64,000 bases of DNA from positions 1 through 64,000 of IMG/VR virus record IMGVR_UViG_3300031992_000032, one strand, 5' to 3'. Shown piece after piece: positions 38,526-48,968 of the stretch; the first letter of the stretch is position 1; each line of letters opens with the position of its first letter. A model generated the notes under the pieces. That model saw nothing but the letters and a program-made list of their open reading frames with translations. It made no database searches and was not told where the DNA came from. Position numbers and translations under genes: made by a program. This stretch comes from a virus (taxonomy: Duplodnaviria > Caudoviricetes).

Positions 38526-39392
38526 AAATTAGTGAATATGTTTATAATATAAAAATAGATTTGAATATATAATATATAAAATGTATTAAGAATATGTTAG
38601 AGATATATTAAAAATGTGCTAGAAATGAGTTGGGTGTGGTGGACCGACCTCCATCCAAATACCATTTTCTTTATTTCGTTATTCGTTATCCTTATTTATA
38701 TTATTTAGTTGCGTTCGCTCTTGGATTCTATGCGGAAGCGGCATATATAAGAAGCGGCTGGACCCGCTTCTTCAATTAAATATATTACCCCATTATATTA
38801 TATAATAATTTTAAAATAAAATCAAGTTGCTGCGTAGTTCATGGCAATTTTGCATATAGCTTAGCTTATTAGAGCTAAGCTAGGCCCACTTCGTTAACAT
38901 AATAAGTAGTCATAAATTGAATTACGTCAAGACATTATGTAAACCTGCGGCGCCCCCCACCAGAAGCGGGATCCCGCTTCTAATTCTTTTACTCTTGCGT
39001 GAGCGAAGCGAGCATTTCGGGAAAAATTGCGGAAGCGCGGCAGGCCTGGTAGTTCCTAGAAAAATTCCATATAGGTGTCGTTCAGGCAGAAAAACGCGCC
39101 ACCTCGGTCGGTCGCGCGCCGTTGAACAGGTTTACATAATTCCTTTGCCGCATTATGTTAACCGCATTTTAGACAAAAAAAATAGAGTAGTTGCAAGCCT
39201 ACTCTATTCCGACAATTTCTTCCTAACGTGAGAAATTATCAAACATCCGCTCTTAATAACGATAAAGAGACACGCCATTTAATAACCCCTCAAATGGTAA
39301 TCGGAATTTTTTTCGTTAAATTCAACGACTAGCTTTTCCTTGGTACTAGCCACCATACCTTTATTGTAGACCTCTTGCAAGGTCATTACAAT

Positions 39393-39593
39393 CTAATTTT
39401 CTTCAATAGATATTTTAATTGTTTCTGGTAGTATTGTTGCGGTTGCCATTACAATATATTCTTTTCCGCATTTTTGACATACTCCAAGATGTTCTTCAGT
39501 TAAGTAGCCATCTTCTATTGAACCATAAAAATCAACCATTTCATCATCTTCAATCTCTCCACCACATTTACAATTAGGAATTTTTAATTTCAT
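39393..39593 (-). CDS. Small zinc-ribbon protein
   Basis: CKC and CQKC; own promoter and AAAGGGG SD. Confidence 0.7.
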   Translation of the reverse strand: MKLKIPNCKCGGEIEDDEMVDFYGSIEDGYLTEEHLGVCQKCGKEYIVMATATILPETIKISIEEN

Positions 39594-39735
39594 TTTTCTT
39601 TTCCCCTTTCTCTTTTTCTATAATCATTTTATCATTTTGTCTTTTCTTTGTCAAGTCTTTTTTTATTTTTATTTGTAATTTTTTTAAATCTTTAGCTTCC
39701 ATAATTATCAACCCCTTTTTTTATTTTCTATAATA

Positions 39736-39764
39736 ATTATAACAATTATTTATTATTTTGTCAA
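39736..39764 (-). promoter_or_regulatory. sigmaA consensus promoter; representative of about 20 minus-strand cassette promoters between 39.6 and 48.5 kb
   Basis: TTGACA-17bp-TATAAT with TG extension and ATAGAAAATAA leader. Confidence 0.85.
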
Positions 39765-40041
39765 TAAAAAATGATAATTTTGTTAAAAAATTTTTAAAAA
39801 TGCGACCAAATATGCGGAAAAAGGCACATTTTATTAATTTTCTAAGTAAAAAAGTTGATTTTTCAAGCAAAAATGCGGTTTCAGGAGTTAACATAACGCA
39901 AAAATAATATAGTTTTTGATAAAAAATAACCCAAAAGTAAGGTTATTATGTAAATCGCGGCCTGCGGTGACCGCAAACCGGCCGCCCGGATTATGTAAAC
40001 TTCAAGAAGATAAAAAAAGAGAGCCTTATGGCTCTCTGTAC

Positions 40042-45266: not shown

Positions 45267-45542
45267 CTCTTTTCTTATTTTCTATAATAATTTTATCATT
45301 TACTTTTATTAAAGTCAATTACAAAAGTGTTAAGCTTGTGTTACAAAAATGTTGCAAAGGTAAAGACGTTATGTAAACCAGATTCGTGCGGTTTCGGGAA
45401 AGCATTGGCGTTCTAGGGCTTGCGGCGATTCGTTTGAAAAATGTTTAAGGGGTATTAGTTTACATAATCGCGGCGCCGCTCCAACGTCAGCGGCCCGCCC
45501 GCATTATGTCTACCTCTGTATTCCCGCATTAAAAAAGCCCTG

Positions 45543-46028
45543 CTATGCAAGGCTTTCAAGTTCTCTCAATTCCGCCAAATCTTTTATGGTTAACCCTTTC
45601 CATTTTTTAGTACTATTGTCTGCTACTTTTGTAATTCTCTTAATGCCTACTCCCCCAGCATTTTCCCAGTCTACTAGGTTTTTTGTATAGTCATCTAGTA
45701 AGTAAGTTTCCGCATTTATGTCAACTCCTAGTTTTTGTTTGATAACTTCTGCTTTATTATCTCCAACCCTACAAATAACTATATTTTCTATTGGTAAGCT
45801 AGGAAGATATTTTCTAAGCCAAAGCATTTTTTCTAAATCGCAACGAAGATTTGGACTTGCTGAAATTATGTAAACGTTTCTTTTGTTTGCTAGTCTGTCA
45901 ACTTCTCCAATGTTTTTGTATGGTAGCAAGTTTTCAAAAAAACCAATTTCATTTTCAAATCTTTTTAAAGCATTTCTAACATTAAATCTTGCTAATGTTC
46001 CGTCTAAATCTAAAAATATTTTAATCAT
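45543..46028 (-). CDS. HAD-family 5'(3')-deoxyribonucleotidase-like protein
   Basis: FLDLDGTLA, IISAS, LLDDYTKNL..W..AGG motifs. Confidence 0.85.
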   Translation of the reverse strand: MIKIFLDLDGTLARFNVRNALKRFENEIGFFENLLPYKNIGEVDRLANKRNVYIISASPNLRCDLEKMLWLRKYLPSLPIENIVICRVGDNKAEVIKQKLGVDINAETYLLDDYTKNLVDWENAGGVGIKRITKVADNSTKKWKGLTIKDLAELRELESLA

Positions 46029-46100
46029 AATTCTATCCCCTTTCTATGATTATAGTATAACAAAAGTGCTTGATTTTGTCAAACACTTTTTGAAAATTTT

Positions 46101-48151
46101 TTATTTATACAAAATGTCTAAGCCGATATCTTTTACAAATTCTTTAAACTCTTGATAAGGTAGTTCATCCATAATTTCTTTTAATGTAACATTTTTGCTT
46201 TCTTCGGTTGTTATTCTAAATTTAAGATTTTGAAAATCTTTTTCTTTATATTCTATAATTCCACAAATTGTTCTTCTATCGTATAGAACAACATTTTTTT
46301 TGAATAGAGTTTTTCTAACATAAAAACAATTATGTTCCCAATATTCTTTATTATTATTTAAAATTTGATTACAAAAATCTTTGTAATTATATTCCCTATA
46401 AATTTCTTTTTCTTCACAATACTGCAAACGAGTTTTGTCAATTAATAACCATTTTTGCATTTTGTTATCAAATAATTCTAAATAAAATCTTACAATTTTT
46501 TTCATAATTTTTAACCCCTTTCTTATTATCTATAATAAGTATAACATTGATAAAATTATTTGTCAATAGTTTTTTGTAATTTATTATAAATTTTTTCAGC
46601 AATTTCTTTTTCTTCTTCTATTCCTATTAAATAGAAATAGCTATCATCTAGACCTAAAACATAGTCATGAACTGCTTTCATTATGTCAACAAATGGTGTT
46701 GTTGATACTAAATAATATTCTTTTATTATTTCATCCTCTTCAATATTTATTTCACTTGTTATTTTTAAAATCATTTTTCATTTCCCCTTTCTTATTATCT
46801 ATAATAATTATATCATAGCAATTATTACAAGTCAATAACTATTTTATTACATTTTTATTATATTAGTCAACAGATTATGTTAACTAGTTTCGGGATCAAT
46901 GCGGTCAACCTGCGCTTATAAAAATTCGTATAAAAATTATGTAAACCTATCTGTATTATGTAAACGCGGCGCGCCACGACCGCACGCGCGCCGGCCGGCA
47001 GTTTACATAATTTGGTAGATAAGTTTACATAAAAAAGAACCTTTCGGCTCTTTTACTAGTTCCAATAACCACTTTCTTTTACCATTTTTTTGTATTCGCT
47101 TTTATGGAAGATTAGCCAAACTTCTTGACTATTTGAAAGAGCATTTGATTTGGCTTGCTTCTTAATTATTTCGGCTTGCTCTTCAGTAACAAGACAATTT
47201 GTAGTAAAGCCCTTTCTTAAAGTATTATAAATAAAAAACATGTAATCTTTCTTTTCTTCCATAATTAATTTCCCCTTTCGTTTCTCTTATCTTGATTATA
47301 GTATAACACTATACTATTATAGTGTCAATACTTTTTTTAAAATTTTTTCATTTTTATTTCAGTTAGTTTAATGTATTGATAAACACCAACACCGCATAGA
47401 AAAGTTATGTTTAATAGACTTACTATTGCTAATAACATTTTAATCAACTCCTTTTCTTATTATCTATAATTATTATAACATTATTATTATTTATTGTCAA
47501 TTACAAATGAATTAAAATAATGTTATGATTATGTTACAGTTGTTAACACCTTATGTCAACCTGTAAGGTTGATCCTAGATGAAAGATGCTGGATCCGCTT
47601 GCCGCAGTTTACATAATTCAGCGTAGGCTTCAGGTGTACATTTCCGCTTCGTGTATAAAAAAAATAAGGCTTTCCGCCTCATTTTTTAGTCAATATTATA
47701 TAAATAATTATGTACATTTTCTTCTATTTCAATTTGAATTAACAAACCTTTTTCAGTTTCAATTACATCAACAATTTCAAGTTCTTTTGTTATGTTATCT
47801 ATTCTTTCTTGTTGCTTAATAATAATAACATTTAAAGTCATTACTGATAAAAACATAATAATTAATAAAACAATTAAAAATATTTTTTTCATTGTTTAGT
47901 CTCTCCTTTCTTCTCTTGGTTTAACCTTGAATAAAGCTATCAAGCACAACACCAGAAGTAGCTTTATTTAAGTCAATTTCAGTGTAAGTGATTTCGCCTT
48001 GGTCATCATTAAAATAGCTTTGTCCATAACAACCTTTATTTATTATTTCTCTTGCTTCTTGTATGTTATCAGCAACGATAACAACTCCATCGTATTCATC
48101 ATAATCAGTGTTTTCTGCTTTTACTAAAAATAATTTTTTCATAATTATCAA
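46101..48151 (-). CDS. Small cassette genes (46101-46505, 46556-46774, 47056-47262, 47686-47892, 47921-48151)
   Basis: Intact ORFs, most behind their own promoter and SD. Confidence 0.65.
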
Positions 48152-48968
48152 TCTCCTTTTTCTCTCTTTTCTATGATTACATTATAACATTATAAGTTAT
48201 TGTTGTCAACAACTTTTTAATAATTTTTTAAATAATTTTTTATTTCAATTGCTATTGTTATAACAAATACAATTGCTAAGATAATTGGATTGTCTATTAA
48301 AAACTTAATAACATTTAAACCTCCAACAAAAGCTAACATTGTTGCTATTGTACCTACTACTATAAATAAAATAATATCAATTCTTTTTTTCATTTGTATT
48401 TCTCTCCCTTTCTCTATTCTATAATTAAATTATAATACTAATAGAAGCGGTTGTCAATTACAATTCCATTACAATTGTGTTACATTTATGTTACAAGTGT
48501 CAACACGTTATGTTAACTGGTTAGTTCCAGGAAAAAGCTTTGCCGAGTTGAATGCCCAGTTGTTGGTTGACATAATTCCAAAGCCTTACCTACTTCTTTA
48601 AAAGCGCTTCGCCATGGCCCACGTCGAAGCGAGCAGCAAAGAAAAAGAACCAATTGATTAATCTCAAATTGGTTCTTATTCATTAAAGAGGTTTTATTAT
48701 AGTTGCTTCAAAAAGCATGATTTATTCTTTTCTTTTCATTTATCTATTCATTCATGAAGAGTTGTTACTCTCTTCTTTGTTTATCTATCTTGTTTAAATC
48801 CCACCCTATTTATTGGGAAGTGGTTGAAAATTCTGTGGTTTCTACGCAACGTACCAAGACAATAAAAGGGGGTATATTTTGGGAAAAAAAGTTTTGGATT
48901 TTGTTTTTTTGGTTTGTCCTCGACCAAAAAATCTCCAAATCTATTTTTAAATCCAAAATACGATAGCA

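Follow-up and report, generated by a model that had tools for sequence, protein, structure and literature searches.

We analysed a 64,000-nucleotide stretch of DNA, here called the window, that forms the first half of a 127,072-bp gut-phage record in IMG/VR (IMGVR_UViG_3300031992_000032; Duplodnaviria, Caudoviricetes; estimated to be 86% complete). Part of the window is a block of early genes whose spacers and coding sequences are studded with a ten-letter word, TTATGT(A/T/C)AAC (TTATGTHAAC), which a preliminary description of the same DNA had likened to a half-site for the recombinase XerD. Counting the word genome-wide against the background, which had been put forward there as a check, gave a clear outcome: all 42 exact matches in the window fall inside positions 38893–48575, a stretch of 9.7 kb, and 0 lie elsewhere in the record, against about one expected (mean 1.00, standard deviation 0.99 and maximum 4 in 100 dinucleotide-preserving shuffles). 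Copies with one mismatch are far less confined, with 16 of 75 in the array region. The sites are split between the strands (24 plus, 18 minus), and, taking open reading frames (ORFs) with ribosome-binding sites as the reference, 28 of the 42 are intergenic and 14 lie within early genes. The intergenic sites form ten clusters, made up of nine spacers with 2–5 sites each and a single site at 42118. The earlier figure of about 28 half-sites over 38893–48576 corresponds to this intergenic set, and all nine of the spacers described there, with 2–5 copies in either orientation, were recovered. Because no exact site, and hence no genic one, lies outside the block, the in-gene copies appear to be under selection as DNA. 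In five of them the word encodes Tyr-Val-Asn: four, all in one frame, belong to an exonuclease gene (42267, 42435, 42495 and 42675), and the fifth is at 41565. The array is laid out as follows, with each site given by its first position.

38893–48575, both strands: the whole array of 42 exact sites; extended form A-TTATGTHAAC-T/C (reverse complement R-GTTKACATAA-T).
38893–39162: spacer 1, with sites 38893 (minus), 38935 (plus), 39130 (minus) and 39153 (plus) and a GC-rich segment at 39090–39129.
39887–40000: spacer 2, with sites 39887 (minus) and 39991 (plus) and a one-mismatch copy at 39946; the word pair brackets a GC-rich palindrome at 39956–39990.
41257–41447, plus strand: spacer 3, with sites 41257, 41369, 41412 and 41438, all plus; it also holds a GC-rich module at 41379–41411 and a LexA/Cheo box, CGAAC-N4-GTTCG, at 41313–41326.
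42118–42127, plus strand: lone site that overlaps the exonuclease stop codon.
42978–43117, plus strand: spacer 4, with sites 42978, 43064 and 43108 and a GC-rich module at 43074–43107.
43006–43032: perfect CIRCE in spacer 4, TTAGCACTC-N9-GAGTGCTAA.
44264–44346: spacer 5, with sites 44264 (minus), 44321 (plus) and 44337 (minus).
45369–45467: spacer 6, with sites 45369 (plus) and 45458 (minus), a one-mismatch copy at 45504 and a GC-rich segment at 45468–45503.
46875–47032: spacer 7, with sites 46875, 46937 and 46956 (plus) and 47001 and 47023 (minus) and a GC-rich module at 46966–47000.
47551–47616: spacer 8, with sites 47551 (plus) and 47607 (minus).
48508–48575: spacer 9, with sites 48508 (plus) and 48566 (minus); the edge of the array, adjoining plus-strand packaging genes.
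40181–46690: the 14 sites within early genes, the first seven at 40181, 41565, 41774, 42267, 42435, 42495 and 42675 and the other seven at 42797, 44411, 44557, 45136, 45716, 45866 and 46681.

The genes of the block lie on the minus strand and adjoin plus-strand packaging and head genes. As the preliminary description had it, they are organized as promoter–gene–terminator cassettes: promoter-like sites in the region (115, against 64.3 ± 9.7 in shuffles) and terminator-like sites (16, against 4.7 ± 2.5) both exceed the shuffled level, and 19 minus-strand promoter-like sites match the consensus at 11 or more of 12 positions. The duplication of cassette genes noted there is also found, for one gene pair. 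'Cassette array' is a fair description of the region, and the block resembles the region that a large virulent Firmicutes phage would use early or for host takeover. The nearest published portal protein is 64% identical and comes from a 12-kb fragment, followed by those of Phass-1 (39%) and Enterococcus phages (30%). A family search of ten early proteins left eight without a Pfam match and seven without a PHROG match; besides the two enzymes listed below, a weak zinc ribbon was seen among the early products, and the other products scanned have no family.

39393–48393, minus strand: early-gene block; its genes, short and about 20 in number, each have a ribosome-binding site and a promoter of consensus sigma-A type.
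40560–40925 and 44376–44747, minus strand: duplicated gene of 121/123 amino acids, 71% identical (82 of 115 residues).
42123–42869, minus strand: DEDD-type exonuclease (phrog_20187, 5.5e-43).
45543–46028, minus strand: NT5C-like nucleotidase (PF06941, 1.5e-6).
41227–41266, minus strand: class A module of 40 nt (family D7), present in six copies, at 41227, 42948, 45339, 46845, 47521 and 48478, with 75–88% identity.

The spacers are composed of repeated modules, among them promoter modules of 80–120 bp; a module that combines promoter and ribosome-binding site recurs in ten copies of 83 nt with 60–78% identity, and repeat-family analysis returned four copies of a GC-rich module bracketed by the word. 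Class A modules consist of one full word, then TTGAC and two degenerate copies (GTAACA) at steps of about 11 bp, and they sit directly upstream of clusters of strong promoters. A search of viral contigs with a composite pattern of the word plus TTGAC returned 42 loci with one match apiece, which we took as chance. Two near-identical terminator hairpins, at 39179–39210 and 43128–43160, each close a non-coding stretch of about 190 nt, and at 43160–43340 a promoter and ribosome-binding site (at 43.3 kb) drive only a 12-codon ORF; these elements may be small RNAs or leader peptides. Two Rfam families matched between 38 and 50 kb, rne5 (20.7 against a gathering score of 180) and RT-6 (20.6 against 46.7), and both were rejected as far below gathering. 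The early gene at 41475–42017 encodes a 180-amino-acid protein in which an HEMGH motif can be read; every close relative has a gene in its array with 27–30% identity. The protein had no Pfam, PHROG or PDB match and may be a metalloprotease. When this protein and another conserved one (49342–49911) were compared with the PDB and the Atlas, only chance-level matches resulted.

The identity of the word lies in its resemblance to one half of dif. We take TTATGTAAACT to be the XerD arm of Bacillus subtilis dif. Across 206 sites from 14 phage loci, the logo on the strand of the XerD arm reads A (65%)-TTATGT(A 74%, T 14%, C 11%)AAC-(T 49%, C 30%), or, as its reverse complement, R-GTT(T 74%, A 14%, G 11%)ACATAA-T (65%). 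Past the word itself, the only conserved columns are R at −1 and T at +10, both in the 42 window sites and in the 206 phage sites; in the window, A precedes 27 of the 42 and T follows 21. In the excerpted text of PMC2731167, TTATGTAAACT, TTATGTTAACT and TTATGTAAACC are given as right arms for many bacteria, and the dif right arms shown there read ATTATGTAAACT, ATTATGTTAACT and ATTATGTAAACC. The word and its flanks, A-TTATGT(A/T/C)AAC-(T/C), match this conserved right (XerD) arm over 12 nt and vary at the same tolerated position, so that the likeness claimed in the preliminary description extends to the flanks, at least for the arms in that excerpt. The TTATGTnAAnT pattern of an 11-bp XerD arm fits all 42 exact copies in the window. 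Of the two half-sites the right one is conserved, and it is this that RipX, the B. subtilis XerD, prefers, according to an excerpt of PMC5357621. Judged by its letters, the repeated word is a lone XerD-arm half-site.

The rest of dif is missing. The phage sites share the right arm of dif, flanks included, but they lack its left arm and its 6-bp central region, and dif is one site at the chromosome terminus whereas the phage has 42 copies in an early region. A second, partly symmetric arm 6–8 bp away would have left conserved columns, and none appeared in the 42 window sites or the 206 phage sites, which bears out the earlier remark that no XerC arm is recognizable. Inward-facing pairs in eight array-bearing stretches come no closer than 16 bp start to start (a 6-bp gap between ten-mers; one pair, its position unplaced); the next closest are two pairs at 23 bp, one of which, 39130/39153 with a 13-bp gap, is the closest read in the window. 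No preferred spacing between phage word copies was found. In the reverse-complement alignment, TTNAC occurs 14 bp beyond the word in about half of the 206 sites, and TTDACA at +13 in 21 of 163 phage sites. In a distant relative (G005, locus L124), palindromic pairs GTTKACATAA-N7-TTATGTAAAC lie at 11206–11232, 11955–11981 and 12013–12039; here two XerD-type arms face each other over 7 bp, in the sole located arrangement that resembles a full core site.

The phage does not appear to supply its own recombinase. PF00589 and PF02899 had no match in the record (they matched in 14 and 12, respectively, of 14 control genomes), and a XerD query against the record by tblastn also gave no match. The phage's own tyrosine recombinase, which had been offered as an alternative recruit, was thus not found in the 86%-complete record.

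The array is conserved in relatives, where it again lies in the early-gene block. Using the exonuclease as the query, we recovered three related phage records. The complete genome G001 (exonuclease identity, 48%) has 14 sites against 1 for the control, and 13 of the 14 surround the exonuclease gene across the contig ends; for G002 the counts are 5 and 2, with the five sites all inside 8 kb around the exonuclease; and G003 has 1 against 3. A scan of 2.9 million viral contigs for two word copies 20–50 bp apart then gave at least 117 loci. Among the 117 listed, 71 have just two copies, and others carry 28 (L149), 25 (L164), 23 (L089), 16 (L054) or 15 (L067) sites, those of L149, L164 and L089 falling in 12–15 kb. 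The nucleotidase, the exonuclease and a gene like that at 41475 are common to the window, L149, L164, L089 and L054, and packaging genes are also common to the window, L149 and L089. Because these relatives share early and packaging genes, we regard the array as a trait of the window's phage clade. The order of the early genes varies within it: relative to the window and G001, both L149/L089 and L164 carry the nucleotidase, the exonuclease and the 41475-like gene in a rearranged order.

Outside the clade the picture is more mixed. Among four further phages, GTTKACATAAT occurs 11 (G004), 6 (G005), 6 (G006) and 5 (G007) times, against 3, 0, 0 and 0 for the control, and the sites vary at the same tolerated position; only G005 has a related portal protein. 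No protein is common to the clade's loci and eight other array-bearing phage loci at E ≤ 1e-4. Published distant relatives carry no array: Phass-1 has 3 copies, Enterococcus phage VRE9_2 3, Lactococcus phage AM1 1 and Staphylococcus phage Stab23 0, with control counts of 1, 5, 8 and 6, respectively. Comparison of the region with published phages (megablast and blastn) found no near match, only promoter-like matches of 100 bp to Staphylococcus phages. Six loci (L091, L159, L162 and L143, which are viral contigs of about 50% G+C, together with L051 and L110) hold tandem iterons with GTTTACATAAAC or 16-bp word repeats, and these probably represent a different system that shares the ten-mer.

The same word also forms arrays in bacterial chromosomes. 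Applied to one genome per bacterial or archaeal species, the two-copy pattern, which favours paired words by its design, returned at least 120 loci; among the 80 listed, 37 belong to Lachnospiraceae (Blautia and Roseburia included) and 18 to other Clostridia, and many of the listed matches are on contigs longer than 100 kb. At least 52 chromosome clusters have three or more copies within 80 bp. One layout recurs in at least eight loci, each from its own species, in which a short-chain dehydrogenase gene is followed by four word copies and then by spoIIM on the other strand. The next gene after spoIIM encodes a 295-amino-acid recombinase in seven of these loci, and the eighth locus ends after spoIIM. 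For the recombinases of L275 and L276 the best family is TIGR02225 (XerD), at 309–314 bits and so under the equivalog cut-off of 329.6, and the threshold of NF001399, a tyrosine-recombinase subfamily, was passed; the other five are 54–68% identical to that of L276 (tblastn). In the promoter of this xerD operon, the proximal copy, GTTGACATAA, provides the −35 hexamer, and TGnTATAAT follows 16–17 bp on. Several Clostridia species (L240, L256, L258, L259, L275, L276, L278, L280 and L303) carry a conserved four-copy array in the divergent promoter region that separates the dehydrogenase gene from the spoIIM–xerD operon. A literature search found no paper naming both spoIIM and xerD.

Evenly sampled genomes indicate how common the arrangement is. 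A word pair offset by 13 bp occurs in 2 of 401 genomes of the class, one of the two directly upstream of spoIIM–xerD; this is a lower bound, because the strict pattern misses the array of G011, in which the variants come in another order. Some genomes are rich in the word as a whole (114 copies against 14 for the control in G013, and 120 against 31 in G014), and two G013 contigs have 20 of their 46 sites outside ORFs of at least 100 amino acids, in DNA that amounts to roughly 8% of the whole. In a complete Alicyclobacillus genome (G015) the sites fall in copies of a repeated element and not in one region; word pairs recur there at 454–484 bp and at 51 bp (for example C1:2128236/2128720 and 2350838/2351322), and look like copies of a repeated, possibly mobile, element. 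Because Clostridia chromosomes carry the same word in arrays, including at the spoIIM–xerD promoter, a host factor is likelier than a phage one to read it, in keeping with the earlier proposal that the phage recruits a host protein.

We therefore come to the protein itself. The identity of the word to a dif arm over 12 nt, together with its recurrence at the xerD operon, is otherwise hard to explain, and points to XerD or a very close paralogue as the reader. On this basis we predict, tentatively, and as our preferred reading but not a confident one, that host XerD binds the half-sites without recombining them, as at the XDS sites of B. subtilis. Each copy of the word would bind one molecule of a host XerD-family recombinase, and no strand exchange would be expected, because the partner arm and the central region are missing. 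The phage would have copied a type of element found in some Clostridia chromosomes, namely arrays of XerD arms that stand alone between genes, one such place being the promoter of the xerD operon itself, and would have concentrated 42 perfect copies on a 9.7-kb early block transcribed by the host polymerase. XerD would then coat this part of the phage DNA.

What such a coat might do is more doubtful. Karaboja et al. are said to have reported in 2021 that XerD-binding XDS sites near the terminus of B. subtilis unload Smc–ScpAB. Excerpts of two papers, PMC11840125 and PMC11894783, describe XerD as unloading Smc–ScpAB at XDS and an artificial XDS array as blocking Smc translocation. By analogy, XerD bound to the phage array could stop or unload loop extruders of SMC type (for structural maintenance of chromosomes), whether the host condensin or an SMC-like defence; of the possible consequences we consider this the likeliest, and plausible, although its probability on the whole is low. 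Bound XerD might also insulate the early transcription units from one another. In its fullest form the idea is that the array is an anti-SMC DNA element acting in cis, in which the XerD-loaded, first-expressed 10 kb would mimic a chromosome terminus and so stop or eject condensin or a Wadjet-type defence, and that the Clostridia arrays would be an unnoticed organizing or regulatory element with feedback on xerD; we offer this as speculation, with a small probability of being right.

Several known systems bear a partial likeness to this proposal. XDS, as characterized in the papers that cite them, are dif-like sequences that XerD uses without recombination and that block SMC translocation when arrayed, and the phage too has many lone XerD arms in an array; XDS, however, lie at the chromosome terminus, whereas the phage sites belong to a lytic phage, which carries 42 perfect copies within 9.7 kb, some of them inside genes and with both orientations represented. 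CTX-phi, TLC-phi elements and gokushovirus prophages, in the accounts available in excerpt, carry a sequence recognized by Xer and no recombinase of their own, as predicted here for the phage, but these elements have one two-armed dif-like site for integration or module movement, whereas the phage has half-sites and no sign of integration. Mobile elements known as pdif modules also exploit host Xer recombinases. In the matS/MatP system of Escherichia coli, again as excerpted, numerous repeats of a short site mark out a domain of DNA and exclude MukBEF from it, which resembles the phage array, but the protein and the site are others and the setting is chromosomal. The matS site is a palindrome. 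T7 gp5.9, which, according to an excerpt of PMC7617805, inhibits MukBEF, sets a precedent for a lytic phage that counters an SMC complex of its host; gp5.9 is a protein that mimics DNA and acts in trans, whereas we propose a DNA element that would act in cis through a host protein.

If XerD does bind, the phage array would be the first dense, naturally occurring set of such sites, and the phage the first lytic one to recruit a host chromosome-maintenance protein through DNA sites alone. The role of XerD has so far been that of a recombinase and, in B. subtilis, of an SMC unloader at a handful of terminus sites; the lone-arm arrays of Clostridia and those at xerD promoters suggest a regulatory or architectural role in that group. 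Our literature search found nothing in print on the array, and for the four ten-mers the only relevant paper was that on dif.

A number of observations speak against binding by XerD. Among the 52 listed chromosome clusters, 48 have all copies in a single orientation, whereas the phage spacers mix orientations; the common spacings in the chromosome clusters, read by eye, are about 21, 31–32 and 42–44 bp start to start; and host arrays of this kind look like arrays for a transcription factor. Enrichment is also patchy: in the family of G013, 10 of 41 genomes exceed the reversed-word control and 3 of 41 exceed it twofold, and XerD is near-universal. A canonical dif (ATAA-N6-arm) was not found in five incomplete array-bearing metagenome-assembled genomes, two dif candidates in G014 appear to fall inside ORFs, and two site-dense contigs of G013 show no GC-skew switch that would point to an XDS-like terminus location. 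Finally, because the viral scan itself selects word pairs, some of the other array-bearing phages may carry unrelated iterons.

Much of this evidence fits the main alternative, which we rate as a serious one although rather unlikely, namely that the word is the operator of another sequence-specific DNA-binding protein, either a lineage-specific host transcription factor or a phage regulator of the early region that would bind an asymmetric site as a monomer, and that the likeness to the XerD arm is a coincidence. Such a protein would act as an on–off switch for the early block, a scheme like that of phage P1 with its C1 operators, which are asymmetric, present in many copies in either orientation and scattered over several operons. 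The single orientation and regular spacings of the host clusters and the restriction of enrichment to some lineages (with only 3 of 41 family genomes above twice the control) would all be expected, as would the use of the proximal copy as a −35 hexamer in the xerD-operon promoter; in the six class A modules, likewise, a full site and its phased, degenerate companions come directly upstream of promoter clusters. A phage regulator could also hide among the early proteins, because most of them lack a known family. The alternative nevertheless demands a double coincidence, in that a 12-nt match to the dif arm would have to fall together with recurrence at the xerD operon in eight or nine species, and 14 of the sites are genic and far from promoters. 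P1 encodes its own repressor, whereas here no binder of phage origin came to light and host chromosomes carry the word too; nor is any protein common to the clade's loci and the other array-bearing phage loci.

Two DNA-binding candidates lie beside the array, and neither is conserved in G001. One is a full sigma-70-family gene at 34646–35524, with regions 1.2, 2, 3 and 4, which had no match in the complete genome of that relative; we rejected the word as a promoter of this sigma factor, since G001 has the array without it. The other is a neighbouring helix–turn–helix protein, and the word as its operator was rejected in the same way, its gene not having been found in G001. Binding by a phage regulator, which the preliminary description had named as an outcome that would overturn XerD, thus gained no support from these candidates.

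The spacers hold more than the word, and their other contents suggest, from sequence, that they collect sites for host DNA-binding proteins. The CIRCE at 43006–43032, a perfect operator for HrcA, is the single one in the 127-kb record, as is the strict LexA/Cheo box at 41313–41326; the two occupy equivalent positions in spacers 4 and 3. By eye, no canonical −10 hexamer is seen upstream of either. In relatives L043, L046, L047, L089 and L118 many perfect LexA boxes abut the G side of the word, and L083 has 4 strict and 13 relaxed boxes. Other host operators (CtsR, DnaA box, parS, NBS and Spo0A box) and Chi-like words are not enriched in the region.

Modules of about 34 bp, GC-rich and palindromic and flanked on both sides by the word, are found at 39090–39129, 39956–39990, 41379–41411 and 43074–43107, with further ones at 44274–44320, 45468–45503 and 46966–47000, in a genome of 30% G+C. 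They are homologous to one another, sharing GGCGCG(C) and GCCGGC, and similar modules occur in relatives; CCGGCC is found seven times and GCCGGC six times in the region, and neither outside it. The word copies that flank these modules are direct in three and inverted in the rest, and in spacer 5 the inverted sites 44264 and 44321 close a GC-rich hairpin of 67 nt (−19.8 kcal/mol when folded as DNA; z −5.1). A second conserved short word, GGTTTYGGGAAR (reverse complement YTCCCRAAACC; read by eye), sits in the interval that separates the host operator from the class A module, at 41300–41312, 42993–43005, 45390–45402, 39014–39026 and 46888–46897, and is also present in L149 and L089.

The CIRCE, the LexA box and the GC-rich palindromes, as apparently collected host-protein sites, raise the further alternative of a decoy battery, in which the replicating spacers would titrate scarce host proteins through 42 XerD arms, a LexA box and an HrcA site, derepressing the SOS and chaperone regulons and disabling XerD functions on the host chromosome. 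That the record's sole perfect CIRCE and its sole strict Cheo box take equivalent positions in array spacers would suit it, as would the missing −10 hexamers and the many boxes that abut the word in relatives. Yet the genome has just one LexA box and one CIRCE, both could equally act in cis as sensors, and a decoy needs neither confinement to the early block nor placement within genes; we therefore hold this explanation to be improbable.

The preliminary description had also proposed that Xer recombination at the word shuffles the cassettes in a pdif- or integron-like manner. The permuted early-gene order among relatives, the gene pair duplicated at 71% identity and the site pairs inverted around structured GC-rich spacers would agree with this, but the anatomy of the sites does not fit, and on that ground we reject Xer shuffling as having very little chance of being correct. 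Cassettes bounded by complete sites, whether XerC/XerD pairs or attC with an integron integrase, were not found: the window has half-sites only, with no XerC-like arm or complete core and a closest read pair separated by 13 bp, the word copies are direct around three GC-rich modules and inverted around others, and no recombinase or integron integrase was found in the record. The reordered genes are equally explained by the repeated promoter/ribosome-binding-site modules, which suffice for homologous recombination.

Equally remote is the idea that the word is an extended −35 element (TTKACA plus flanks) read by host RNA polymerase: its reverse complement does contain TTGACA, TTTACA or TTAACA, the GTTGACATAA copy with its TGnTATAAT does serve in the xerD-operon promoter and in the six class A modules a hexamer resembling TAACAT is found 17 bp downstream. 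Yet just 14% of the window sites (42 in all) and 6% of the host sites (457) have a −10-like hexamer following at 17 bp, shares that do not exceed those at control spacings (0–10% and 3–6%, respectively), which led us to reject a general −35 role; in addition, the third position of the hexamer is T in 74% and G in 11%, the sites occur in both orientations and within genes, and the strong early promoters (families D1–D4) lack the word.

Beyond the array, the window contains a cluster of ten tRNA genes, one of which, at 32477–32552, has the anticodon CTA and would read TAG. Relatives hint at TAG recoding, in that Phass-1 is filed under a 'code 15 clade' and the portal gene of G005 has five in-frame TAG codons. 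Code 15 was rejected for the window, where no clear recoding is seen (14 against 12 ORFs of at least 250 amino acids). A phage tRNA-Val at 31339–31408 is 95.7% identical over 70 nt to the bacterial locus L264, a likeness that gives a weak hint at the host. The stretch is present in sequencing runs labelled sheep and bovine gut, and one RNA run contains 27% of the sampled window words.

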